Shown here: piece after piece, positions 602 through 46,457 of the stretch
How the letters are laid out: each line of letters begins with the position of its first letter
Position numbering within the stretch: position 1 is the stretch's first letter
DNA from: a phage
Sequence record: PZ445439.1
Strand: one strand, 5' to 3'
Length of the DNA stretch: 64,000 nucleotides
Made by a program: the position numbers and the translations under genes
Notes under the pieces: generated by a model
What the model was told of the DNA's origin: nothing
The model's input: the letters and a program-made list of their open reading frames with translations, nothing else
Databases searched by the model: none

Positions 602-1062
602 TAGTAAAGGTCCTCAGAGTAAAGTTCTTTTTCACTACCACCACGTTCAATACGTACTTGTCCAGCGTAAGTTGCAATAATCATTGCTTCTTCACGTGTC
701 CAATAATTACTATATTGGTCAATAAACCCTTGGTCATCATCGCAAACTTGTTGAGTAACTAATTGAGGTTTAACTACATCTAAAACTTCTGCCATATCTT
801 TAGAATAATGACGAGCACCTGGAATAATAAGAGTTCGTCCATCTTTTAATTTAAAACGATTAGCTGCACAGACAATTCGTCGTTGATACTTTTGGTTTTC
901 ATCCCAGTACGCAGTCTGCCAACAGATTTCAGGAACTTCTTTCAGAATATCTTCTTCTGTGCATTTATAACCATGCGCTTTAAATTTTTGAACAAGGCTT
1001 TCCGGAGTCTCACGAGATAAAGGAACATTTAGCATTTTTAAACGATTGATAAATGGGTTCAT
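601..1062 (-). CDS. hypothetical protein
   Basis: 153-aa ORF; shares short motifs (LIIPGARH / [14 protein letters not shown]) with the next ORF, suggesting paralogy. Confidence 0.3.
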
Positions 1063-1388
1063 TTAAACCATCCTTTAATACGTTGCCACAAAGTTTTCTG
1101 TTGAGCTTTGTTGACACCAATTGATCGAATAACTGGTTGAGATTCCTGGAATTCTTTATAATCAGCAAGGTAAATTTCATAAGCTGCATCTGTAAAGGTA
1201 CTAATCGCTGCCATAAAGTTCTTGCGAATTCCCATAGAGGCTTCAGAACCACCACGGATGATTAAATATTTACCAGTCTTAATCTTTACGATACTTCCAA
1301 GATAAGCTCCATGATACCAGATATCCCAACCTTCTTGAGTAGGTTCTGCACAACGACGAAGTTCATTGATAATTTCTAACTTGTTCAT
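1059..1388 (-). CDS. hypothetical protein (possible paralog of 601-1062)
   Basis: 109-aa ORF, 4-nt overlap with downstream ORF typical of phage coupling. Confidence 0.3.
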
Positions 1389-1398
1389 TATTTATTCC

Positions 1399-2034
1399 TC
1401 ACAGTTCAGATGCTACAGTGACTACTGCTTCAATGTTTTCTTCCGAGCGTTTAATGTCAAGATACACATTACCGTTTTTAGCGATTTTACATGACATTCC
1501 GATGTCAGTAAATTTCTGAATATGATGTTCCATCATTTTGTATCCAAAAATTCGCATATTTCCATTGTTGTTAATTTCAAAATTACGAATTCCGTGAGTG
1601 CGTTTTTCTAAAATAGCGAGATAGTTACTGCGATAAGTTTCAACCTTTTTAAGAACAAATCCATTTTCATCTAAAAGTTTTAACATGAAGTCTTTATCTT
1701 CTTCCATATCAGAAGTAATCTCACGAGCTTTACGAGTTGCTCGTTTTTTCAGCAGTTCCGGAGCATTTTCTTGTGCGTATAAAGTTGCTGCATTTGAAAT
1801 AATATCCTGAGCTTCACCAGTAATGATTAATCCATCACCAGATTTCTCCACTAGGCCTTTTTTAATCAATACCCCAATATTACTATTAACTACTGCATTA
1901 CCTAAATCTGGATGCACCTCACGAACTTCTGCAGCTGTAATAAAATCTTTCTTAGCAATAGTAATTAAAATTGCAGCAGTTTTTTCATTCAGAACATCGT
2001 TAGAAGCTTTGATGATGTAAGTTACTTTAGACAT
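1399..2034 (-). CDS. motA: MotA, activator of middle transcription
   Basis: 211 aa; sequence MSKVTYIIKASNDVLNEK...VASEL matches recalled T4 MotA almost residue for residue; early promoter cassette immediately upstream. Confidence 0.9.
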   Translation of the reverse strand: MSKVTYIIKASNDVLNEKTAAILITIAKKDFITAAEVREVHPDLGNAVVNSNIGVLIKKGLVEKSGDGLIITGEAQDIISNAATLYAQENAPELLKKRATRKAREITSDMEEDKDFMLKLLDENGFVLKKVETYRSNYLAILEKRTHGIRNFEINNNGNMRIFGYKMMEHHIQKFTDIGMSCKIAKNGNVYLDIKRSEENIEAVVTVASEL

Positions 2035-2049
2035 TTTCTAATCTCCGTA

Positions 2050-2100
2050 ATTCTGTATCAGTAGTTGATAGTTGTATAGTACCATAGTATGCTTTGGTTG
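2050..2100 (-). promoter_or_regulatory. early (sigma70) promoter cassette upstream of motA
   Basis: minus strand: A/T-rich UP region, GTTTAC at -35, about 18 nt, TGG-TACTAT at -10. Confidence 0.5.
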
Positions 2101-2136
2101 TAAACCGTTTTGTGAAAAAATTTTTGAAATAAAAAA

Positions 2137-2157
2137 GGGAGAGCCTCGGCTCTCCCT
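2137..2157 (-). terminator. GC-rich hairpin + U tract downstream of gene 52 operon
   Basis: GGGAGAGCC/GGCTCTCCC stem followed on minus strand by T-rich run. Confidence 0.5.
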
Positions 2158-2161
2158 AAAA

Positions 2162-2311
2162 TTACTGCATGACTGTGATAACTGTCATGATAACACGTTG
2201 AATTCCGAATGCAAGAAGACCTCCTGCTACGGCTGGAACAACACCTAAACCCGCCAGTAAAATGCTACCAGATACTAATGCAGCGCTTGTGATACCAATG
2301 AATGGACTCAT
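2162..2311 (-). CDS. small hydrophobic protein (about 49 aa), below ORF-track cutoff
   Basis: ATG overlaps the TGA of gene 52 (ATGA coupling), GAGGA Shine-Dalgarno, product MSPFIGITSAALVSGSILLAGLGVV... is membrane-like; GC hairpin terminator follows. Confidence 0.3.
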   Translation of the reverse strand: MSPFIGITSAALVSGSILLAGLGVVPAVAGGLLAFGIQRVIMTVITVMQ

Positions 2312-3636
2312 TTGATTTCCTCTAAATCTTTAGTGTATTCTGTAACTACATCAGTAGTTTTCCAATATTCGTTTTCTTCTTTTTTAGCTTTAGCTTCTTC
2401 AGCAAGTTTCTTTGCTTCGTCGGAAGTCATATGAAAAATGTTCATTCCAACTAGTTTATCAACATAAGAAGAATACATATCAATTTTAGAAAGTTCTTCG
2501 GTCAGTTCTTTACGAGTTTTACCTTGTACAACAATTTCACCTGAAATTACTTTCTTAATGAAATGTGCCTTGGCAAAGGCTAAACGAAATGCCGATTCAG
2601 TTTCTTTGATTTTGTTATCAATTCGTTTTTGGACATAAGTTTTACGAACTTCAACGAAGTCTTTGATTAAATCAACTACGTTATCGTAAACTTGTAGTTT
2701 TCCTTTCTCATTAATAACCGTAATATTCTGAGAACGACGCTCAATCAACCCGAAGTCTTTCATAATTTTTGCATGGCGTTCTTCTTCATTATCGCTCAAA
2801 GAATATTCTTTGCGGAATTTAACTTTGAATCCAAAACCGTGCTCACCGCAAGCATCATCCCATGTAATGAAGCCTTTATCTTCAAGTGGGTCTAAGATTT
2901 TACTCACATAAGTTTCACGATCATACTTATATGGAATCTCAGTGATATGCATTTGAGTTCGTGAAGTAAACTTATATGTTCCACGAATTTCATACTGCCC
3001 ATCAATTTCAACAACTTCACCACGAAATTCTGGGAATTCTACCTTCGGTTTAGTTACTCTCTTTCCTTGAAGAGCTTGCAGTACAGCTTTCTTAACAGAA
3101 GAAACGCTATGAGGAAGAATGTAAGTTGCATAACCAGTTGCAATACCGGAAACGCCATTAAGAAGAACAGTAGGAATAATAGGCAAATAGAAAGCAGGCG
3201 GAATGTGTTCTTTATCTTGATGTACCGGAGCATATTCAGTATCTTTATATACGTTATAGAAATTTTTACTTACACGAGCAAAAATATAACGACTTGCTGC
3301 TGCTTTTTGGACGGTACGAGAACCAAAGTTTCCTTGACCATCTAACAGAGGAAAGTTATTATTCCAAGTGTTAGCCATCAAAGCACCTGCGTCTTGCGCA
3401 GAGTTTTCACCATGATGATATCCAAGGTCCGCTACACCACCTGCAATAGAAGCGAGTTTGTGAAACTTATCTTTATTTCCTCGTGCCAAATCAAGAGCTC
3501 GAGCAATAACAAATCGTTGAACTGGCTTAAATCCGTCAATCATATTTGGGATAGCACGATTTTCAACCGTGTACATAGCATAAGCCAATGCTTCATTATC
3601 AATGATACTTTTTAAATCGCGATTATTCAGTTGCAT
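2308..3636 (-). CDS. 52: DNA topoisomerase II medium subunit gp52 (GyrA-like)
   Basis: 442 aa (same as T4 gp52); GFKPVQRFV...ARALD and active-site-region motifs of type II topoisomerase A subunit. Confidence 0.9.
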   Translation of the reverse strand: MQLNNRDLKSIIDNEALAYAMYTVENRAIPNMIDGFKPVQRFVIARALDLARGNKDKFHKLASIAGGVADLGYHHGENSAQDAGALMANTWNNNFPLLDGQGNFGSRTVQKAAASRYIFARVSKNFYNVYKDTEYAPVHQDKEHIPPAFYLPIIPTVLLNGVSGIATGYATYILPHSVSSVKKAVLQALQGKRVTKPKVEFPEFRGEVVEIDGQYEIRGTYKFTSRTQMHITEIPYKYDRETYVSKILDPLEDKGFITWDDACGEHGFGFKVKFRKEYSLSDNEEERHAKIMKDFGLIERRSQNITVINEKGKLQVYDNVVDLIKDFVEVRKTYVQKRIDNKIKETESAFRLAFAKAHFIKKVISGEIVVQGKTRKELTEELSKIDMYSSYVDKLVGMNIFHMTSDEAKKLAEEAKAKKEENEYWKTTDVVTEYTKDLEEIK

Positions 3637-4478: not shown

Positions 4479-5987
4479 ATTAATTTCCTCTAAATTATTT
4501 TCTACTCCAAGGCCGCATGAATACACACGGCCATTAAATTAATCGTCGCAGTCGACGCTCAATTCCCAAAACTCTTCTACGGTATAAGTTTCAGTATCAT
4601 TTTCAATACAGAAACGTTCATTACTGTTATTTGCTAAAGTAGCGTTAACTGTCATTTTTTCGATAGTGCTCTTAAGAGGTGAAATACGAATTAACTGATC
4701 ACCGTTATCTAAACAAAAAATTTCACCAACTTTTACATCTTTAAAACTTTTCATAATTCACCTCAAGGAGTATAAAATCCGAATGCAGTTGTTGACCATC
4801 CCATCCAATGCGGAAAATTTGCGCCAATGTAAAACATAAGAATATAAAACCAACCGCTCAGCAAATTCATTATTTTACACCATTCCAAATTGTTTCAACC
4901 ACGGATTTTAAACCATTCTGGTGAATATCAATTCCGACTACTGTCATCAAATAGATTCCAACTACAACTGAACCTAATGCAAAAATCAGCATGAAAATGA
5001 ATAAAGCCGGAAAAATATTATCGAAAAACCATTCAATAAATGTAAAAGCACTGCGTTTACGCTTCATATTTTCCTCACATAAATCCAAAGTAAGCGTTTA
5101 ATACATCAATCATTAAAACGATTGGGAATATACTCAAAACTACTAGTATTATAACTACATTCCATATAGCTTTAACAATCTTTTTCATTTTCTGTTCCTC
5201 CGTAGTTGATAGGGTAATAGTACCACAGAGGAACAGTCTTGTAAACAACTTTTTTAAAAATATTCGTAATAAATGTGAATACCAATCACTACTGCCGAAA
5301 CTTGCGCAACCCACCATGCACAAGCAATAAGTACAGAATTCAAAATTTTCATAATAACCTCATCACAAAAGTAAATGTTAAACAAATTAATGGAATACTA
5401 ATTAACCAAACAAAACACCACCATAATGAACTCATAATTCAATCTCAGCGATTTTCATTTCATTACTATTAATAGCCTCTTTAAGACTATCTAAAAGAAT
5501 TACATTCCAGTGGTCATTCATATGACCATTAACTAAGCGTGTAATTTCTTCAGGAGTTGAAAAATAAGGCTGATCAGACTCCCAGTGCGATAATCCTAAG
5601 CGGGTATAAATCATACCTTCATCATCACTAGAATATTCAACTGACACAAACTCATCAGTTGTTTTATGTTTAGCGTAATAAAATTTAAATTTCATTTTAT
5701 TCAATAATCCGCTAAAAGATCGACGATTGCATCACGAAGACATTTATTCGCAATACGTTTAAGAGCAATTTCAGTTTCAGGCGCATTTCGAATAATCATT
5801 GAATTCAATTCAGCTTCGGCAAACTGAAGTTCTTTGACTAATTCAGCTTTATATTTTCCTTGACCTTTCTTAGCTTTTGCTCGTTTTAATTCAGCTGTAG
5901 TAAACATTTTGTTCTCCAAATCCGTATCAGTTGATAGGGTAATAGTACCACAGTCCTTGTGGTATGTAAACCATTTTGTGAAAATTT

Positions 5988-36280: not shown

Positions 36281-36608
36281 GTTTTTGTTTAAAAGAAATA
36301 ACTCGGAAGTTATTAGTTAAATCTTTCATAAAAGTTCTTTGACCAGGAACGATTTCAATCAGTCCCCAATCTTCTAATAGCCATGCAATCGAATCACGAC
36401 GAACTTCATCTTCTTCTGTCATTTCAACTTGACGGCCATCCATACGAAGCATTTCTTTAAAATGAACGATATAGTATAGTCCTTTTTTCTGAAGAATATG
36501 ACAGGACTGATACAGAACTTTATCTTTATTATTAGCAATTCCCATACGAGTCAAAGTTTCTTTTACTTTCAGAAAATCTTCAGGTTTTTTAAGAGTAATT
36601 TCAATCAT
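36240..36608 (-). CDS. regA: RegA translational repressor
   Basis: 122 aa as in T4 RegA; position between 62 and 43. Confidence 0.85.
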   Translation of the reverse strand: MIEITLKKPEDFLKVKETLTRMGIANNKDKVLYQSCHILQKKGLYYIVHFKEMLRMDGRQVEMTEEDEVRRDSIAWLLEDWGLIEIVPGQRTFMKDLTNNFRVISFKQKHEWKLVPKYTIGN

Positions 36609-36609
36609 T

Positions 36610-37173
36610 TTACCATTCCAATGCTAGTTTTTTGAGTTGTTTCTGTTCTTTTACGTTCTTAGTCACTTCTTTCAAAAAATCATCCGTGACTAAACCTTTT
36701 AGTTCTTTTAATACTAAAGGAAGTTTTCCATTTTTAGTAAGAATTGATTTATAGTTAATTGCATCATTTGTATTAACTTGATACCGTTTAGCAAGTAACT
36801 TAATAATCAATACTTCGGTGGAATCTTCAACCAGTTTTGCCCATTTACCATATCTTTTACCACGAGGAACTGCAGCCATTAGATAATTAAAATGAGCTTC
36901 ATCACTTAAGCCTGATCCAATTAAATTCATAGCATATACAGCTGGCATGCACTCTGGAAATTGTGATAATGCATTTTCGACCATGAATTTTGAATAATCT
37001 TTTTGAGCAATAGAGCATTTAGTTTTATTATTGATAGCTCCAATTATTTCAAAAAATTCATTTTCAGCTTTTTCTTTAAAAGAATCAGCAGCGGATTGGA
37101 CAGCTGTCCAATCTTTTGAATACCAAGCAACTTGATGCTCGTTTAATTGAATATCATCTTCAAATAAGCTCAT
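36610..37173 (-). CDS. 62: clamp loader subunit gp62
   Basis: start at [10 protein letters not shown] gives 187 aa as in T4; coupled to gene 44 stop. Confidence 0.85.
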
Positions 37174-37174
37174 A

Positions 37175-38134
37175 TCACTTCCACTGCATTTCACATGCTA
37201 ATTGAATGAAAAGATAAGCTAAATGTAATTCAGTGTTAGCTGCAATACCATGATACTGATTATTTTCGCCGACAATTTCGTACATACGAATAATACTCTG
37301 TGGAGTTACACGTGAATAGATTTCTTCGGCAAGTTTACCCACGAACCACGAATAATCAGCTGCATATTTTGGTGCTAAAGCTCTGAGTTGTTTAACATCT
37401 TTATTTTTGAGAGACTCAAGAACATCATCAATAGCGCCACGATCGTTAGTAACCAGTGATAAAATACCAGCATCCAAAACACCTTTAGATGAATAACTAT
37501 CGAGCTCGCCAATAGTTTTACGAAAATCAGGAAAATTCTTTTTAACCAAAGCTGCTACAACTTTCATATCAGCTATAGCAATTCCTTCATGCTTACAGAT
37601 TTCAGTCAATCGACGAATCATCTGCTTCATCATTTCAATTTTATCTTCATCGGTCGGTTGACCGAACGTAATAACTCGGCAGCGTGACTGAAGTGGTTTA
37701 ATAATACCATCAATATTGTTAGCAGTAATAATAATACTACAGTTTGAACTATAAGCTTCCATAAAGGAACGAAGATGTCGCTGAGATTCTGCTAAACCTG
37801 AGCGGTCAAATTCATCAATAACGATTACTTTTTGACGACCATCAAATGAAGCTGCACTCGCAAAATTAGTTAAAGGACCACGAACGAAATCAATTTTACA
37901 GTCTGATCCATTTACAAACATCATATCAGCATTTACATCATGACACAATGCTTTTGCTACAGTTGTTTTACCTGTTCCTGGAGAAGGAGAATGAAGAATA
38001 ATATGTGGAATCTTACCTTTACTTGTAATAGATTTAAAGGTTTCTTTATCAAAGGCGGGAAGAATACATTCATCGATAGTAGATGGACGATATTTCTGTT
38101 CAAGAATGTGTTCTTTTTCATTTACGGTAATCAT
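37175..38134 (-). CDS. 44: clamp loader ATPase gp44 (AAA+, RFC-like)
   Basis: start at MITVNEKEH gives 319 aa as in T4; Walker [15 protein letters not shown] Walker B, SRC-like motif. Confidence 0.9.
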
Positions 38135-38169
38135 AATTTCCTCATTCAAGTTTTAGTGTAAATTATAAA

Positions 38170-38181
38170 GGGCCGAAGCCC
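38170..38181 (-). terminator. UUCG-tetraloop hairpin downstream of gene 45
   Basis: GGGC-UUCG-GCCC immediately after stop. Confidence 0.5.
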
Positions 38182-38185
38182 TCTA

Positions 38186-38872
38186 TTAAAAATCGTGGGT
38201 AGAATCAGCTTCAAGAGCTACTACATAATTCGCATGTTCACCTTCAAATTTAGCAGCACCTTGTTTACCTTTTGCCCAGAGCAGAAGTTTATAATTTCCT
38301 GGTTGCATTTTCATATTTGCCATATTGATAATGAAATTAAATGTATTTTCACCATCATAATCACCAAGAGTCAAAGAATATTTAACACGGGTCAGAGCAG
38401 AATCTTCTACTTTATTAAAACCGTTAATTACGATTTTACCTTCTTTTACCGTGATAGCAATTGTATCAATTTGCAGACCACGAGATACACGCAACAGTTG
38501 TTGAAGGTCTTCAGCTTTAATTTCAGTAACAACAGATGCTACCGGGAATGGAATTGGTTTATTAGGAGCAACTACTGTACTCGGATCGGCTGCTGGCCAA
38601 AAAATTGTTGAACGGGCATCAGCAATTTTAATATTTCCATCTTCTGACTGGGAAATTTCTGCATCATCATTAACTAGAGACAGAATACCGAGAAAACCGT
38701 TCAAATCGTAAATTGCTACATCAAAATCAATAACGTCAGAAATATTTGCTTCCGCATAAGTTGTACCATTAACTGCGCGAGTCATAATAAATTGACCGGA
38801 TTTAAGCATAATGCCAGAGTTAATAGTAGCGAAATTTTTCAAAATATTCAGTGTGTCTTTAGATAATTTCAT
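38186..38872 (-). CDS. 45: sliding clamp gp45
   Basis: 228 aa as in T4; UUCG hairpin right after stop. Confidence 0.9.
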   Translation of the reverse strand: MKLSKDTLNILKNFATINSGIMLKSGQFIMTRAVNGTTYAEANISDVIDFDVAIYDLNGFLGILSLVNDDAEISQSEDGNIKIADARSTIFWPAADPSTVVAPNKPIPFPVASVVTEIKAEDLQQLLRVSRGLQIDTIAITVKEGKIVINGFNKVEDSALTRVKYSLTLGDYDGENTFNFIINMANMKMQPGNYKLLLWAKGKQGAAKFEGEHANYVVALEADSTHDF

Positions 38873-39756
38873 TTCAATTTCCTATTTACATAATAGTTAG
38901 ACCAGGACCGTACAGCACCCTGATAAGATTCGTCGTTAAACCCATTAGCTACTGCAATTTTACGAAATTTATTATAACTTGGTTTTCCGTAAGCATGCCA
39001 TAAAGATTTTAATTCATCTTCATGTTCAATCCAAGTTCCTCTAGCTTTAGATTTTCTAAATTTTGATTTGAATTCCGGTAAATTATTTCTAACAGTTGCT
39101 TGAATTGAAGCTCTCTGTCTTCTTTCAGCATTATTCCATAATTCTTTTTGAGATTTAGAAATTTTTGATCTTACACTTTCTGAATTCATTATATCACTAA
39201 ACTTTTTAGCATAACTACAATTAAGATATTTCAATTTCATCTTATTTGAGAGTTTAAGCTTTTTCTCATCGGTCCAGTGATTCTTCATTGAATTAGATAT
39301 TTTGTATTTTACTTCAGAACTATGTTTGTAACCTTTACGAATACCGACATACTCAGGCGTAATTTCAGATTGCGAAAGCTTTACAATTTTTCCAGTTAAA
39401 ACATTTTTATATGTTCCATATCCTTTAGCACCAATTAAAGTATTTTCATCTGCGTATGCTTTATTAAAATATTTTATATTACTTTTTGCTTTAACTTTTA
39501 ATTGAAAAAATCTCTCCAATTTTCTTGGATCTAATATAGTTTCAGCTAAAATTTTGACGGTATATTTAGTGGTTTTAATAAGTTCAAAATATTCATCGCT
39601 ATAACTCGATGACACGCTTCCAGTATAAATCTTTCCAGCTGAATCAATTATATTTGTTCCATCGAAAATTGCGTTAATTTTTGAACCTATATAATAACAC
39701 GGAAAAATATTTTTAGCTTCCCGCTCTGGAAAGCTAATAAGATATACTAAATTCAT
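38869..39756 (-). CDS. free-standing GIY-YIG homing endonuclease (Seg-like)
   Basis: 295 aa; N-terminal [10 protein letters not shown]...CYYIGSK resembles GIY...YIG motif, basic C-terminal DNA-binding-like region; inserted between 45 and rpbA. Confidence 0.55.
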
Positions 39757-40142
39757 TTATTAAACTCGGCCACAATTGTTTCCGCAACAATTTGAGCAGC
39801 AACAATTAGACGTTCATCTGCATTACCACAATAATCATCTTCAAGGCGTTCACCACATGAAGTCATAATAAATTTAGCACCGGCGTTTAGGGATTCTGTA
39901 GTATGTTTGCGCATTAGTTCAATCCATTTATTACTTACTTCACGATCGATAGCTTCATAATACGCATGACGAGCAGGTGCAGATTTAATTTTGTTCTGAA
40001 TAACTTCCATTGCGTTATCAGAAAGAGACAAAACCCATGCTCGACGAATTTTATTTTGGTTTTGTGGATTTGATTCAGAACGCACGTGTTTTGGCTGAAT
40101 ATCTTTTACGTCAACAGTATAATTCACAGTAATTTTAGTCAT
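39753..40142 (-). CDS. rpbA: RpbA-like RNA polymerase binding protein
   Basis: 129 aa as in T4 RpbA, position upstream of 45. Confidence 0.5.
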
Positions 40143-40395: not shown

Positions 40396-42078
40396 TTAAA
40401 CCATTACAGTAAATCGACCAACTTTCTTCATTTGAAGATGCTGACCATATTCTTGTGGGTCATGGTCTTTATGCGAAATTATAAAAACATTAGTATTTTT
40501 CATTGAATTTATAATATTCGCTACACCTTTAATACCTTCGGCATCAAATGACCCATCAAACACTTCATCGAGTATTAATGTACTAATACTAACACCAGAT
40601 ACAATAGAAGCAATATCACGCCAAGTAAATAAAAGAGCAATATCAATTCTTGCCTTTTCACCTTCACTAAATGAAGCATAACTAAAATCTTCACGACCAC
40701 GGGATTTAATTGTCTCATTAAATTCTTCATCTAATGTAAACACATAATCCGCTTCCATTATTTTAAGATAATGGTTAATCTGCTTATTAAATAATGGAAT
40801 GTACTTTTTAATAATAGCACCTTTAATACCAGAATCTTTGAGCATATCAGTCAAAATTCCTCGGTGGTATTTTTCCATTACTAAATTAGTTTTTGTCTTA
40901 ACAATTTTATCAAGTTCTTCTTGAAGCAGTGCTATTTCATCAGCATGGTCAATAAACTCAGAAGATGCTTTTTCTATAGCCGCTTTAACCTTTTTAGCTT
41001 TATCTACTGTCGTGATTAGAGATTGCTTTTTATTGCGAATATCATTTGCCAACGACTGTTGGGTTTTAATATTATCTCGGTATTCATCAACAAGAACTTT
41101 TAAATTATCACGATGTGTTGAAAGCTGTTCAAACGAATGCGTACATTCAGAAACTTTATCTTTAATTTTAGAAACAACTTTATCACCGGAACTCAATTGC
41201 GACAAACAGGTTGGACATAATCCACCTTCGTGATACATATTAATGACTTTATTATATGAGTCAATTTTTGATTTAATTAAAACTGCTTCTTGACCGATTT
41301 TATTAAATGCATCAGTCGGGTCTTCATCCAAAACAATATTAACTAATCTTTCATTAGCTTCTTCTATTTCCGATTTTAGCGTTCTAGCTTCTTTTGCCAA
41401 ATCATCGTACATATTTTGCAGACGAGTAAGGTTGTCACCCGTTAATTTTTTCTGGCGTTCAACGTTATCATTATATATTTTAATTTGTTGGATAATACTA
41501 TCTTTTTTAACATCAAGCACTTGGTTTTGTGAATTTAATTCACGTATTAGTGCTTTATTAAGCTTATCCATTTCAGCTAATGTTCCTACCTCAAGCAGGT
41601 CTTCCACAAGCTTTCTTCGTGCAGGGGTCGACAAACCCATGAAAGGGGTATACCCTGCTGTACCAAGGACAACAATCTGCTTGAAACTGGCATATGACAT
41701 TCCGATAAGCTGTTCAAATTCTGCTTGGAAATCTTTACTGCTGGCAGATTCATTAAGACGTGTACCGTTAACGGTGATTTCGAAAACGTTTGGTTTTTGT
41801 CCTCTTTTGATATAGTACTTTTTCTCATCATATTCCATCCACAGTTCAACTAAAAGTTCTTTCTTATTTGTGCTGTTTATTAATTGACCTTTCTTTACAT
41901 CACGGAATGGCTTGCCAAAAAGCCCAAATGTGATGGCTTCTAACATAGTAGACTTACCACCGCCATTTCGTCCAGTAATAAGAGTTTTTTGAACCTTATC
42001 TAATTGAATGTCAATAGGATTTCCACCTACTGACATTATATTTTGATACCTAACTCGGTTTAGTTTAAAATTCTTCAC
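40396..42078 (-). CDS. 46: recombination endonuclease subunit gp46 (Rad50/SbcC-like ATPase)
   Basis: 560 aa as in T4; Walker A GRNGGGKST, long coiled coil with CPTC zinc hook, signature/Walker B at C-terminus. Confidence 0.9.
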   Translation of the reverse strand: MKNFKLNRVRYQNIMSVGGNPIDIQLDKVQKTLITGRNGGGKSTMLEAITFGLFGKPFRDVKKGQLINSTNKKELLVELWMEYDEKKYYIKRGQKPNVFEITVNGTRLNESASSKDFQAEFEQLIGMSYASFKQIVVLGTAGYTPFMGLSTPARRKLVEDLLEVGTLAEMDKLNKALIRELNSQNQVLDVKKDSIIQQIKIYNDNVERQKKLTGDNLTRLQNMYDDLAKEARTLKSEIEEANERLVNIVLDEDPTDAFNKIGQEAVLIKSKIDSYNKVINMYHEGGLCPTCLSQLSSGDKVVSKIKDKVSECTHSFEQLSTHRDNLKVLVDEYRDNIKTQQSLANDIRNKKQSLITTVDKAKKVKAAIEKASSEFIDHADEIALLQEELDKIVKTKTNLVMEKYHRGILTDMLKDSGIKGAIIKKYIPLFNKQINHYLKIMEADYVFTLDEEFNETIKSRGREDFSYASFSEGEKARIDIALLFTWRDIASIVSGVSISTLILDEVFDGSFDAEGIKGVANIINSMKNTNVFIISHKDHDPQEYGQHLQMKKVGRFTVMV

Positions 42079-42521: not shown

Positions 42522-43541
42522 TCATTGTGTTGCCTCTACATATAGCTGATTTGCATATTGAATAAGTGCTTCACGGTCAGAATCAGTGATGTCTGGAATT
42601 GCATTAATGTATTCTTCCATCAACGTCTGAAGCGATTGAACTTCAACTTCTTCACTGTCATCTGACTCGACAGAGTTATCAATTTTTGACACAACTCGTA
42701 ATGAATGCACAACTTTTTCTAGTTCAGATTCGAACTTCGTCAGATTTTTGTCTACCTCAGTTACTATAACACGTACTGATAGATTTGTAAAATCTTTATA
42801 GTCAATTTTTCCTTTAAATGGATAATGAATTCTACGATGCCAGGTAGTATTGTTTGGAATAAATTCCATTCGTTCTGTTTCTGTATCAAACATCCAGAAC
42901 CCACGAGGGTCATTCTCGTCACCTGCAGTTAGTGTCCATGGTGTCCCAATATATCTGACGTTAGCAGCCTCAGAGATAGTATGGAAGTGACCAGACCACA
43001 CTTCTTTATAAGTCTTAAGGAAATCAGGTTCAAGACCGTGAGATTTCATTCCTTTATAAAAATAAAATCCATTCAGTTCCCAGTGACCAACACAAAAAGA
43101 AGCAGATGAAGTTTTGATGTGCTCAAGAATTTCACCAGTATTTTCTTCACACATCCAAGGAATCAAATCAATCAAACACCCGTCAAAATCTACCGTAGTA
43201 GGCTTATCATATACTTTAACATTAGGATATTTAGCCAAAAGCTCAGTAGAAGCATTTGGATGCATTACATTTTTGTAGTGGAGATCGTGATTTCCTACAA
43301 TAGTATGTAATGTGATTCCAGCATCATCAAGCATTTGAACTATTTCACGGGCAAACTCCATAGTTTTATGTGTGATTGCTTTTCGCACATCAAAAATATC
43401 ACCATATTGAATCCATACAGTAATTCCATTTTTCTTAGAATATTCTATCGCTTGCTTAATTCCATCAATTTGAATACCGCGAATCCACTCATCATCAGCT
43501 TTAACGCCTAAATGCCAATCACCCAAGTTTAGTATTTTCAT
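42522..43541 (-). CDS. 47: recombination endonuclease subunit gp47 (Mre11/SbcD-like)
   Basis: 339 aa as in T4; calcineurin-like phosphoesterase motifs (GDWH, GDIFD, GNHD, GHWE). Confidence 0.9.
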   Translation of the reverse strand: MKILNLGDWHLGVKADDEWIRGIQIDGIKQAIEYSKKNGITVWIQYGDIFDVRKAITHKTMEFAREIVQMLDDAGITLHTIVGNHDLHYKNVMHPNASTELLAKYPNVKVYDKPTTVDFDGCLIDLIPWMCEENTGEILEHIKTSSASFCVGHWELNGFYFYKGMKSHGLEPDFLKTYKEVWSGHFHTISEAANVRYIGTPWTLTAGDENDPRGFWMFDTETERMEFIPNNTTWHRRIHYPFKGKIDYKDFTNLSVRVIVTEVDKNLTKFESELEKVVHSLRVVSKIDNSVESDDSEEVEVQSLQTLMEEYINAIPDITDSDREALIQYANQLYVEATQ

Positions 43542-44142
43542 GGTGTCTTTTCCATCCTAATTTAGCTGCTTTTGAAACCAGTTCTTTAATTTTTCCTTTT
43601 GTCCATTCAGGACCAGGAGGTTCATGACATAACATTTGCTTAACTCCGTTATTATACCATTTTTTACCTTTATTATGTGATGAAGCTTTAAATTTATTTG
43701 ACCTTCCTTTTACATAACCTTCTGGAATATAAGGCAAAAAGGCAGATTTTCCTGTTAATGGATCATGTGAATGTATATTTCCTTTACAATTATGAGAACC
43801 ATATAATGGATGATTTTGTCCTTTATTATCTCTTCCAAATGAACCTTTTGGAGCAGCATATGACATATTAAAGAATAATGGATTTTTAACTGCATCATGC
43901 AATCGTTGATAATATAACTCGCATTTAATAGCTTCTTCACGCGTATCAAATTCAGCTAAAATGCATGAATCAAATAAGTGAGGATTATCTGAAAGCTCTT
44001 TATTATAAATTTTCTTATACTTTTTAGATAAAACTGAACCATGATATCCAGCTAAATGCCTATCTAAAGACGTAGATCCAATATAAAAAGGAGGAAGTTT
44101 ATCTCCACTATATATTGTTAAATAAGTTATATATTTTTTCAT
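43519..44142 (-). CDS. GIY-YIG-like homing endonuclease (putative)
   Basis: 207 aa; YITYLTIYSG...PPFYIGSTS, conserved R/H and E (REEAIKCELYYQ), C-terminal GKKWYNNG-type basic motifs common in phage homing endonucleases. Confidence 0.45.
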   Translation of the reverse strand: MKKYITYLTIYSGDKLPPFYIGSTSLDRHLAGYHGSVLSKKYKKIYNKELSDNPHLFDSCILAEFDTREEAIKCELYYQRLHDAVKNPLFFNMSYAAPKGSFGRDNKGQNHPLYGSHNCKGNIHSHDPLTGKSAFLPYIPEGYVKGRSNKFKASSHNKGKKWYNNGVKQMLCHEPPGPEWTKGKIKELVSKAAKLGWKRHHENTKLG

Positions 44143-44305
44143 ATATCAAGAACCGTCATTGAAATGCAAAATAAAATTATTGAAATAAACCCATCTGGTG
44201 TGCTAAAGAACCCAATCCAACATGCTTTAGTGAATAGATAAAATGCAAGAAAAAGTATCACATATTCAAGAAATATCATTATATCAAACTCCGTATAAAG
44301 CTAAA

Positions 44306-44317
44306 GGGCCGAAGCCC
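44306..44317 (-). terminator. UUCG-tetraloop hairpin downstream of a-gt
   Basis: GGGC-UUCG-GCCC immediately after stop, U-rich flank. Confidence 0.5.
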
Positions 44318-44318
44318 T

Positions 44319-45521
44319 TTATTTTGTAATAATGTCAAACTGTTCTTTAAAGCAGAAGCTTGAATCTTGATGCTGATACAAAAATTCATAAGCTTTTTCG
44401 CGTTCGCGGTCATAAAGAGTTCGGTCAGATGACAGTTCTTTAATACGTTCAAATGTTGATTCCATGTCATTTTCATCAAACCAAATGATACCGCTATCAT
44501 GCGAGGTCAAAGGAGTATTATCAACACGGAATTTTAAATTTTCGCCAGTAGATTTCCAAAATACCGGAATTGTTCCACATGCACCAAGCTCGAGATGAGT
44601 ATATTCTAAAGAACGTTGTAGATATTTTTTATCCAACTTACTCAACTGATAACCAAAACCGGATTTACTCATACGTTCAAGCATTTCGCTATTTACATAA
44701 CGGTCAAGAATTTGCGTTGGCAAATTAGGAGCAATTTTAATTTGGTCTACTTGATGAAGACGATAATACTCGTATGGAATTCCTTTTTCTTTAATAGGAA
44801 TGAACGCTGGAGAACGTTCCAGACCTTCCATAATAGTACTTAGTCCTGCAGGTTTAAGATGTTTTTCATGAAAATCAAACATCTGATAAAAACCTTTCCA
44901 TGTAGTCGTACGACCAATCCAACGGTTGATATTCATGTTAATTTCAGAAACATCTTTCCAGTAGGTTGACCGAACCTTCGCAATATCCATAGGAGGCTGA
45001 AAGTTATATACTGTCGGTGCTTCTTCAATATCATCAAACAGAGAAACTGTTTCAGGATACCATTCTTTCATCAGAACTTTATTAAAATCACCATTATCAG
45101 AATGGCTAAAAATAACATCAGCTCGACGAACAGTTTCTTCTAATCCCAAATTTCGGCGCAAAGAAAGAGAAGAATGGTCATGTTGATAAACTACAACACG
45201 AACAGAAGGTTTAATGTTATCAATAATTTTTTTATAGTTATTAATAGTGTCTTCTTCAACCGAAGTAGCAGGAACTGAATTGATAATTAGAATATCACAA
45301 TCATTTACCAGCTTAAGTGTTTTATCATATTCTTTTGCCAATAAAACCGGAATTGAAAATGATTTATAATCATGCGCGCAATTACGAGTAAATGATTTAT
45401 CTTTAGCATAAACCAAAGTTACTTCATGACCATTTTTAATAAACCAATCACGTTGCTCGAGTGAGAATTTTGTTACACCACAACCTTCAAGACCTCGAGC
45501 CATAAAAATACATACTTTCAT
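44319..45521 (-). CDS. a-gt: alpha-glucosyltransferase (hmC DNA alpha-glucosylation)
   Basis: 400 aa; MKVCIFMARGLEGCGVTKFSLEQRDWFIKNGHEV... closely matches recalled T4 a-gt; MotA-box promoter upstream, UUCG hairpin after stop. Confidence 0.9.
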   Translation of the reverse strand: MKVCIFMARGLEGCGVTKFSLEQRDWFIKNGHEVTLVYAKDKSFTRNCAHDYKSFSIPVLLAKEYDKTLKLVNDCDILIINSVPATSVEEDTINNYKKIIDNIKPSVRVVVYQHDHSSLSLRRNLGLEETVRRADVIFSHSDNGDFNKVLMKEWYPETVSLFDDIEEAPTVYNFQPPMDIAKVRSTYWKDVSEINMNINRWIGRTTTWKGFYQMFDFHEKHLKPAGLSTIMEGLERSPAFIPIKEKGIPYEYYRLHQVDQIKIAPNLPTQILDRYVNSEMLERMSKSGFGYQLSKLDKKYLQRSLEYTHLELGACGTIPVFWKSTGENLKFRVDNTPLTSHDSGIIWFDENDMESTFERIKELSSDRTLYDREREKAYEFLYQHQDSSFCFKEQFDIITK

Positions 45522-45560: not shown

Positions 45561-46457
45561 TATAAAGCAATATAGGAGCCGAAGCTCCTATCCACATAAT
45601 ACGCCATACAGAGGCTCATTAGAACTTTTAAATTTTATGCGCTTATATTTTATAGTTCCTTCTGCTTTAGCTTTATCATGAGACTCTTTAAAGCGTCTCA
45701 TCATTTCCTCTTTAGAGGAACGAATTTTATTATAATCTATTTCAGAAGTCTGGGTGTTCATCTTTCATAACTGCCACCATTTTTTGACTTGATAAGAATC
45801 AACCCACACTTTCATATTAGGGTCTGCTCTTACAATAGGAGGATTAACTTCTTTAATTGAACTATCATGGTATTCTTTTTCAGAAATTTTCACACAAAGA
45901 TGACCATTCAAAGATTCAGTAAATCCTGCATTAATTTTAAGACGCTTGAATTTTACGTGTGTAAGCATCAATCATATCCTCAATTTGCGATCTAGTAGTC
46001 TTCCAAAGAATACTGATGAGTTCATCGTTATATGGCTGTTTTAGAATATCCCGACTTTTCTTGATAGCATATTCGTATTGAGCAAAATTATTATTTTCAG
46101 CTGCAATCTGAGCGTGCTTATAAAGACGATTCAGTTCGCGTTTGTTTTTAGACAATAACTTATTTGCTTTTCTTTCTGCTTCAAGACGGTTCTTTTCTTC
46201 AATAGAAGAAATAAGCTTTTCCACTTCATCATTAATTTCGGGTTTATCAGTCATATTATTTCTCTAATATAAAATAAAAATCATCATCTGTTAAATGATA
46301 CCGATAGTTTAATTCTACACCATTAGATTTAAAAGCGGTATCATACGGATTTTCTGGATCAATATCAATGTCAAGAGCTAAAACTTCCCTGAGATACATT
46401 TTAAGTAAATAGGGAATAGCTTCAACTTCAGGTATTTCTTCCAAGAATCCGGAGAGG

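Follow-up and report, generated by a model that had tools for sequence, protein, structure and literature searches.

The gene 47.1-gene 47 junction and its insert

The stretch of phage DNA analysed here (sequence record PZ445439.1; 64,000 nucleotides (nt), hereafter the window) belongs to a T4-like phage of the genus Tequatrovirus and is, in the region considered, 99.6% identical to phage vB_EcoM-G28. On its minus strand, between gene 47.1 and the recombination gene 47, lies an open reading frame (ORF) of 207 amino acids (aa) starting with ATG, which is likely to be a free-standing Seg-like GIY-YIG homing endonuclease gene brought in by a 601-base pair (bp) insertion at the gene 47 start codon. 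An earlier sequence-only reading had described the ORF as a putative GIY-YIG-like endonuclease gene at 43519-44142, between gene 47 and a-gt. The ORF and its sequence are confirmed and it does lie upstream of gene 47, but gene 47.1 intervenes, so that it does not directly adjoin a-gt. The ORF is far beyond chance, given its match to phrog_10820 (E 1e-94; labelled 'HNH endonuclease'), the 170 homologues of its product found by database search and its low ratio of nonsynonymous to synonymous substitution rates (dN/dS); it also matches phrog_314 (E 5e-18; labelled 'homing endonuclease'). The junction comprises the following features:

42522..43541, minus strand: gene 47, Mre11/SbcD-like recombination nuclease subunit, downstream neighbour (Pfam Metallophos, E 2.6e-8, and annotations)
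43519..43541, minus strand: 23-nt overlap between the endonuclease ORF, whose tail is H-E-N-T-K-L-G-stop, and gene 47
43535..43541, minus strand: downstream copy of the 7-nt direct repeat ATGAAAA, the present gene 47 start (alignment)
43519..44142, minus strand: 207-aa ORF, probable free-standing Seg-like GIY-YIG homing endonuclease gene (phrog_10820, phrog_314, 170 homologues, dN/dS)
44136..44142, minus strand: upstream copy of ATGAAAA, formerly the gene 47 start and now the endonuclease start, overlapping the 47.1 stop (alignment)
44139..44279, minus strand: gene 47.1, 46 aa, upstream neighbour of the endonuclease ORF (phrog_6693, E 9e-30)
44302..44321, minus strand: G+C-rich UUCG hairpin directly after a-gt (annotated as a terminator in several relatives, e.g. 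fPS-90)
44319..45521, minus strand: a-gt, DNA alpha-glucosyltransferase, upstream and transcribed in the same direction (PF11440 (AGT), E 4e-237)

Gene 47.1 is annotated in T4, RB32 and PP01, and carries a predicted membrane protein label in PP01 and T4. To compare occupied and empty sites, the window was aligned with ZN18, RB32 and T4 strain 147, an alignment of the junction in related phages that the sequence-only reading had proposed. All three display a clean empty site reading ...GATATATGAAAATTTTAAATTTAGGTGATTGG, where the 47.1 stop overlaps the gene 47 start, and relative to them the window carries 601 extra bp at the gene 47 start codon, between 47.1 and 47. The insert is flanked by the two ATGAAAA repeats; the former gene 47 start codon, together with its context, thus serves the endonuclease gene, whose ATG overlaps the stop codon of 47.1 (ATGA). 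Gene 47 itself now begins at the downstream ATGAAAA copy, within the 3' part of the inserted ORF, so that the endonuclease tail is encoded by the start of gene 47 in a different frame, with the TGA stop lying within gene 47 codons G7-D8. The overlap, previously put at about 23 nt, is exactly that long.

A megablast search with positions 43300-44500 as query matched 521 phage records, of which 68 cover the full query while the remainder lack about 600 bp. The T4 reference, in which 47.1 abuts 47, does not have the insert, nor does any of the RB phage records examined. All 68 carriers are isolates of recent description, and the 60 listed include neither a T-even nor an RB phage. The gene is carried in 13% of the Tequatrovirus records and in about 2% of those of Mosigvirus. 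One matching record, PV654520.1 ('Pseudomonas phage vB_PSGBLB0006', attributed to Pseudomonas aeruginosa), carries the Tequatrovirus region at 99% identity; since the same submitters deposited an E. coli phage almost identical to it, the host attribution looks doubtful.

No T4 late promoter (TATAAATA) was found near the endonuclease gene, sigma-70-like sites occur there at chance level only, and none of the promoters searched for lies between the UUCG hairpin and the gene. The gene 47 ATG is preceded by a weak GGA at -12 to -10 and stands 20 nt before the endonuclease stop; gene 47 translation may therefore depend partly on ribosomes translating the insert. RNA folds around the endonuclease and gene 47 starts were no more stable than those of shuffled sequences and thus give no evidence for a hairpin sequestering a ribosome binding site.

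The encoded protein and its relatives

The 207-aa protein can be divided into two parts:

43849..44142, minus strand: aa 1-98, GIY-YIG catalytic domain as predicted, with Y7 ('GIY'), Y20-I21-G22 ('YIG'), G32-Y33-H34-G35-S36, R68, E75 and N92
43588..43785, minus strand: aa 120-185, putative DNA-binding region with two tandem beta-hairpin modules, IHSHDPLTGKSAFLPYIPEGYVKGR and KWYNNGVKQMLCHEPPGPEWTKGK (AlphaFold (AF2) model)

The motif YITYLTIYSG...FYIGSTS, on which the sequence-only reading had drawn, is present at aa 4-25 and includes the 'GIY' strand I5-T6-Y7. In an alignment of 39 homologues the invariant positions are Y7, Y11, G13, P17, Y20, I21, G22, S23, Y33, G35, S39, L56, F57, A71, E75 and N92, comprising the catalytic Tyr, Tyr, Glu and Asn, and G32-Y33-H34-G35-S36 corresponds to the Seg-type GYxGS motif. 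The glutamate region singled out earlier is REEAIKCELYYQ and contains E75. The R/H pair noted downstream of the YIG motif exists as R28-H29, but R28 is not invariant in the family; R68 is nearly so, and might replace the variable R28 as the GIY-YIG arginine.

A profile comparison by hhalign, close to the HHpred check that had been suggested, aligned the family profile with T4 SegA at 92.6% probability (E 4.5e-7, 99 columns), matching YIG, GYxGS, the Glu (E75) and the Asn (N92); no significant alignment was obtained with T4 SegF or with I-TevI, the latter as an approximate sequence. An AF2 model built from the family alignment has a predicted local distance difference test score (pLDDT) above 93 for residues 1-95 and displays the three-stranded sheet and helices of the GIY-YIG fold. 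The I-TevI catalytic domain takes the top three places among its Foldseek matches in the PDB (probability 0.99-1.0), and a search of predicted viral structures (BFVD) gave 85 matches at E <= 1e-3, of which most among those listed are annotated as GIY-YIG, Seg-like or NUMOD endonucleases. From its conserved residues and predicted fold, aa 1-98 is modelled as a divergent GIY-YIG nuclease domain, in agreement with the nuclease assignment first made from the motifs. Across the 39 family members the Pfam GIY-YIG model is matched at E <= 0.01 by 13, NUMOD3 is matched in 19 and SegE_GIY-YIG in one; we take the family to be a divergent sub-family, poorly captured by the Pfam GIY-YIG model. An NCBIfam search with the endonuclease ORF returned no useful match.

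In the C-terminal half, the AF2 model places strands at 123-126/133-136 and 161-164/169-172 (pLDDT 86-91), and IHSHDPLTGKSAFLPYIPEGYVKGR and KWYNNGVKQMLCHEPPGPEWTKGK appear by eye to be two copies of one module. The second copy includes GKKWYNNG (aa 159-166), which had been called typical of the DNA-binding modules of phage homing endonucleases. The motif is present, lies in the modelled beta-hairpins and belongs to a W-x-N-N-G...P-x-G-W-x-K-G element that recurs in many relatives, NUMOD3-bearing ones included; it is typical only within the sub-family, for it has no Pfam match and is missing from the T4 Seg and Mob proteins. In the 39-sequence alignment the hairpin motif is kept both in gene-47-associated homologues and in NUMOD3-bearing relatives, and the module was not found in T4 SegA, SegF, MobB, MobC or I-TevII. 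No Pfam family matched the isolated C-terminal half, and NUMOD3 is without a match in the window protein at thresholds as loose as E <= 10. The Seg-type helix-turn-helix (W..L..LW..GKP...F.K.A..GFP..SY) is likewise absent from the 207-aa protein, which is called a short form because relatives possess this C-terminal element: it is present in SegA and SegF, in a 267-aa Mosigvirus and a 249-aa Aeromonas phage orthologue, in the gene-39 endonuclease of phage Bp7 and in a second ORF of the window (38869..39756).

By sequence, T4 SegA is the closest characterised relative among those tested, and by modelled structure the I-TevI catalytic domain (PDB 1LN0/1MK0), the best fold match. SegA and the window protein share an N-terminal GIY-YIG domain with the G-Y-x-G-S motif, and the window gene resembles the T4 seg family in being free-standing, sporadic, situated between T4-type phage genes and overlapping a neighbour, as segF overlaps gene 56. 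It differs in that no T4 seg gene lies at 47.1/47, that SegA and SegF have a C-terminal helix-turn-helix whereas the window protein has neither this element nor a detectable NUMOD3, and that the two W/I-x-x-N/D-G...P-x-G-W/Y-x-K-G hairpin modules occur in the window protein and not in the T4 Segs. E75 and N90 of I-TevI correspond to E75 and N92 of the window protein; the place of I-TevI R27, at the start of helix 1, is taken in the window protein by R28, which is variable in the family. Unlike the window gene, I-TevI is encoded in the T4 td intron, and its DNA-binding half contains a zinc finger, a minor-groove helix and a helix-turn-helix.

Homologues were found by tblastn in 173 phage records, and all full-length homologues inspected sit directly upstream of gene 47, with variable neighbours further upstream. 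Full-length gene-47-associated relatives, 49-70% identical to the window protein, occur in five further groups of T4-like phages, in the same place as in the window; together with the clean 601-bp insert and its presence in 68 of the 521 records, this bears out the earlier suggestion of an insertion tight against an essential gene. Their identity to the window protein is as follows:

SmallBear_ER8, Klebsiella phage: 69.5%
LC53, Winklervirus: 69.9%, with 121 nt between the LC53 gene and gene 47
AV109, Mosigvirus: 65%, 267 aa, Seg-type helix-turn-helix kept
IME540, Dhakavirus: 61%
L9-6, Biquartavirus (Aeromonas phage): 50%, 249 aa, Seg-type helix-turn-helix kept

AV109 and L9-6 thus differ from the window form, in which the C-terminal helix-turn-helix is lost. 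The same overlap with gene 47 is found in the Klebsiella, Dhakavirus and Aeromonas orthologues, whose tails (...HEN/NEN) are encoded by the gene 47 start. Annotations of these orthologues run from 'hypothetical' to 'homing endonuclease'. The IMG/VR database contributed only 10 loci, too few for population analysis.

An endonuclease of the Dhakavirus Bp7 resembles the window protein over the nuclease domain (67% identity, aa 1-114) but carries a NUMOD3-type region and a helix-turn-helix C-terminally and lies upstream of gene 39; it may illustrate a modular exchange of nuclease and targeting domains. Such a modular pattern, seen across the homologues, suggests that the C-terminal half sets the target and that this target is the gene 47 5' end. 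In IME540, also a Dhakavirus, the endonuclease occupies the position of JS10 gene 47.1, which is absent (IME540 1784..2615 versus JS10 992..1135); judging from this pair, the insert replaced 47.1 in Dhakavirus instead of following it. The annotated IME540 gene 47 start (2530) is probably too far upstream, with the conserved MKILNTGDWH start at 2602.

Values of dN/dS range from 0.03 to 0.12 among Tequatrovirus copies and from 0.14 to 0.25 across other phage groups, and the corresponding ratio for polymorphisms (pN/pS) is 0.06 in the nuclease half (residues 1-98) and 0.085 in the C-terminal half (residues 99-200), so that purifying selection acts on both. Some copies are truncated or frameshifted: GEP001 has a premature stop at codon 183 (3001..3549 of its locus), ESh36 and ZCEC15 have one extra base causing a frameshift, the ERS-1 copy is in three pieces, and KNP1 and KNP5 carry an internal deletion of about 223 nt in the endonuclease gene (the KNP1 record being marked UNVERIFIED). 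Some of these apparently decayed copies could be sequencing errors.

The gene 47 patch, homing and the alternatives

Within the overlap, gene 47 of the window carries a patch of changes relative to empty sites:

43524..43533, minus strand: four synonymous substitutions in gene 47 codons 3-6, at 43533, 43532, 43527 and 43524, changing ATT TTA AAT TTA to ATA CTA AAC TTG

In a comparison of seven occupied and eight empty Tequatrovirus sites, covering about 900 bp on the upstream side and 1100 bp on the downstream side, no fixed differences were seen in this flank of about 2 kb other than gene 47 nt 9, 15 and 18 (window 43533, 43527 and 43524), nt 10 (43532) being changed in all sampled carriers except P922. 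By our own arithmetic, three fixed sites placed at random in 2 kb would all lie no more than 18 nt from the insertion point with a probability of about 1e-6. The test was widened with a synthetic 92-nt query joining the empty junction to the carrier-type allele, which 436 records cover in full. Most of them show exactly the four mismatches, or more, but five insert-free records match at 100% (BCPEco_001, BCPSen_003, Ec_YwIITB1 and SHFML-26, the last in two records), three at 98.9% and one at 97.8%; PBM-1, UGKSEcP1, EPIMAM01 and UGKSEcP2 are also among the insert-free phages bearing the patch, and RB14 has one of the four changes. The patch thus occurs in about 9 of some 433 insert-free records, which rules it out as an absolutely fixed difference between occupied and empty sites, and its association with the insert is therefore strong but not absolute.

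In SHFML-26 and UGKSEcP2, gene 47.1 is joined precisely to a patch-bearing gene 47 (around 1195..1260 of the loci). Such insert-free alleles would fit either a precise loss of the insert via the 7-nt repeat or a break repair that converted the site without copying the gene. Over gene 47 nt 45-281, all 7 sampled carriers share one of two haplotypes, the other being present at 3 of 7 sampled empty sites, and the flanks further out are mosaic. The patch in UGKSEcP2 stands in the other downstream haplotype, so that it is shorter than 45 nt and separable from the haplotype. A comparable situation is seen in Dhakavirus, where the carrier IME540 and the empty JS10 differ at five positions of codons 3-6 and are identical over the 24 nt that follow, and where divergence is about 19% in the first 300 nt of gene 47 and roughly 6% in the rest; in this single pair the divergence looks like a co-converted tract. 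A 29-mer of the empty site (ATGAAAATTTTAAATTTAGGTGATTGGCA) that had seemed universal even in divergent T4-like phages was an artefact of ascertainment by pattern search, since Mosigvirus, Dhakavirus and Marfavirus empty sites located independently of the pattern have a different sequence there.

These observations are best accounted for by a homing endonuclease whose target is probably the start of gene 47, the patch being a candidate recognition or immunity determinant. The gene would most likely be read, without a promoter of its own, from the a-gt/47.1/47/46 transcript, its translation being coupled to that of 47.1 via the ATGA overlap after the old initiation site of gene 47 had been taken over. 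Upon co-infection with an insert-free relative, the C-terminal beta-hairpin modules would bind the first gene 47 codons, around ATGAAAATTTTAAATTTAGGTGATTGG, and the GIY-YIG domain would cut nearby, leaving a double-strand break that phage recombination would repair from the endonuclease-carrying genome, copying the gene together with some flanking gene 47 sequence. Protection of the carrier's own site would come from the insertion, the four synonymous changes or the two together. Intact copies under constraint, copies that have occasionally decayed, empty sites that are sensitive and a few empty sites bearing the patch together fit the life cycle expected of a homing endonuclease gene.

Several points weigh against this interpretation. 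The Pfam GIY-YIG match (PF01541, residues 4-84, E 3e-4) scores 21.4 bits, just below the gathering threshold of 22.6, neither the single protein nor the 39-sequence profile found anything relevant in sequence searches of the PDB, and the column of R28, the canonical GIY-YIG Arg, is mostly K/R but N, Q, S or E in several homologues. DNA binding by the 207-aa form, which has neither NUMOD3 nor helix-turn-helix, is only putative. All 68 copies are at least 96% identical to one another, so that part of the distribution could stem from one acquisition event and subsequent ordinary recombination, and the record counts treat related genomes as independent. The patch also turns NFKFR into NTKLG in the tail of the endonuclease itself, and could represent donor sequence that hitch-hiked rather than an immunity determinant. 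Finally, the literature searched holds no cleavage or homing experiment on the 207-aa protein or a close relative.

Among the alternatives, we consider it unlikely, though less so than the others, that the gene encodes an active site-specific nuclease kept for a non-selfish benefit, either the exclusion of competitors' 46/47 region or breaks stimulating recombination or amplification near a-gt and 46/47. The strong purifying selection on both halves and the conservation of the gene-47-adjacent position in the window's genus and five further groups speak for such a role, as does a published precedent of host benefit for a Seg enzyme: in a recent study, SegB is reported to promote amplification of anti-defence loci (PMC13096335). 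The low carriage in Tequatrovirus and Mosigvirus and the decayed copies suggest instead a dispensable selfish element, and the neighbourhood gives no hint of anti-defence cargo.

It is less likely still that the 207-aa form is a crippled relic, devoid of specific binding or cutting and kept since its deletion would disturb gene 47 translation. The loss of a helix-turn-helix that the 267-aa and 249-aa orthologues, SegA and SegF possess, the truncated or frameshifted copies, and the fact that the ORF supplies the sequence immediately upstream of the gene 47 ATG would all be in keeping with a relic. A mere spacer, however, is not expected to show a pN/pS in its nuclease domain as low as elsewhere, nor a short form that is 59-76% identical across several groups with all catalytic residues intact; moreover, the insert-free SHFML-26 and UGKSEcP2, with the same gene 47 allele, are viable, so that removal of the gene is tolerated.

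An ordinary conserved auxiliary phage protein without nuclease function, the outcome against which the sequence-only reading had set its prediction, is very improbable: it has many 'hypothetical protein' annotations in its favour and nothing more, and is contradicted by the presence/absence pattern (absence from most close relatives, with a clean empty site), by the nuclease fold and by the conserved catalytic residues. Least credible of all is an HNH endonuclease, as proposed by database labels alone (phrog_10820 and RefSeq, e.g. NC_054916.1 and NC_054933.1), since no HNH-family Pfam match was found at E <= 1, no HNH structure is among the fold matches, all significant ones being GIY-YIG enzymes, and the GIY and YIG motifs are invariant; because no HNH family matches, the RefSeq/PHROG label is wrong.

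Returning to the homing endonuclease, a further-reaching version of this reading seems to us possible rather than probable. The gene-47 lineage would form a distinct, widespread Seg-like sub-family whose short form recognises its target by two hairpins, without helix-turn-helix, zinc finger or NUMOD3; the 4-nt patch would be a natural immunity determinant, and the insert-free patch-bearing phages (SHFML-26, UGKSEcP2 and others) would reflect either break repair converting the site without the gene or precise gene loss. If so, a single natural population of phages would display every stage of the homing endonuclease life cycle, and the prediction would narrow the target site to about 20 bp.

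Reviews of T4-type mobile elements that count seg-like genes per genome mention none at gene 47 (PMC2988022, PMC2993671), and no paper in the literature searched names or tests a 47.1/47 endonuclease gene; some GenBank records already label the 207-aa protein a (putative) homing endonuclease, many others hypothetical. The present assignment would correct this widespread mis-annotation (HNH or hypothetical) and extend the known T4-type free-standing homing endonucleases by a lineage specific to gene 47. Its predicted target is the ~30 bp at the beginning of gene 47, for which a natural, putatively resistant allele and natural insert-free phages, likewise putatively resistant, could serve as controls. 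Such elements may shape mosaicism among therapeutic T4-like phages and can bias marker inheritance around the essential 46/47 genes in mixed infections, and the short architecture devoid of helix-turn-helix could interest engineers of GIY-YIG nuclease fusions.

Other insertions and endonuclease ORFs around the locus

Upstream of the junction, the window contains a-gt, and mobB is missing between a-gt and a-gt.2 (45588..45761). In T4 strain 147 (KJ477685, 2879..2918), gene 47.1 leads directly to a-gt.2, without a-gt and mobB; the T4 reference was compared at 36584..38731.

Further downstream, Citrobacter phage PhiZZ23 carries between 46.1 and 46 an annotated homing endonuclease of 284 aa (5065..5919 of its locus), with an HNH-like motif (HHVLPKS...N...H) and a Seg-type C-terminal helix-turn-helix. 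The window has no insert of this type, its gene 46 ending at 42078 and abutting the next ORF.

The window does contain another Seg-like ORF, on the minus strand at 38869..39756 (295 aa), between gene 45 (38186..38872) and rpbA (39753..40142), where T4 has a short intergenic gap. Its N-terminus carries GIY/YIG-like motifs (LVYLISF...YYIGSK...YTGSV), followed by a weak NUMOD3 match and a C-terminal Seg-type helix-turn-helix like that of SegA, and blastp indicates no more than a distant relationship to the 207-aa ORF (E 0.33). This is probably the 'first' GIY-YIG endonuclease implied when the gene at 47.1/47 was called the second, a numbering that is apt.

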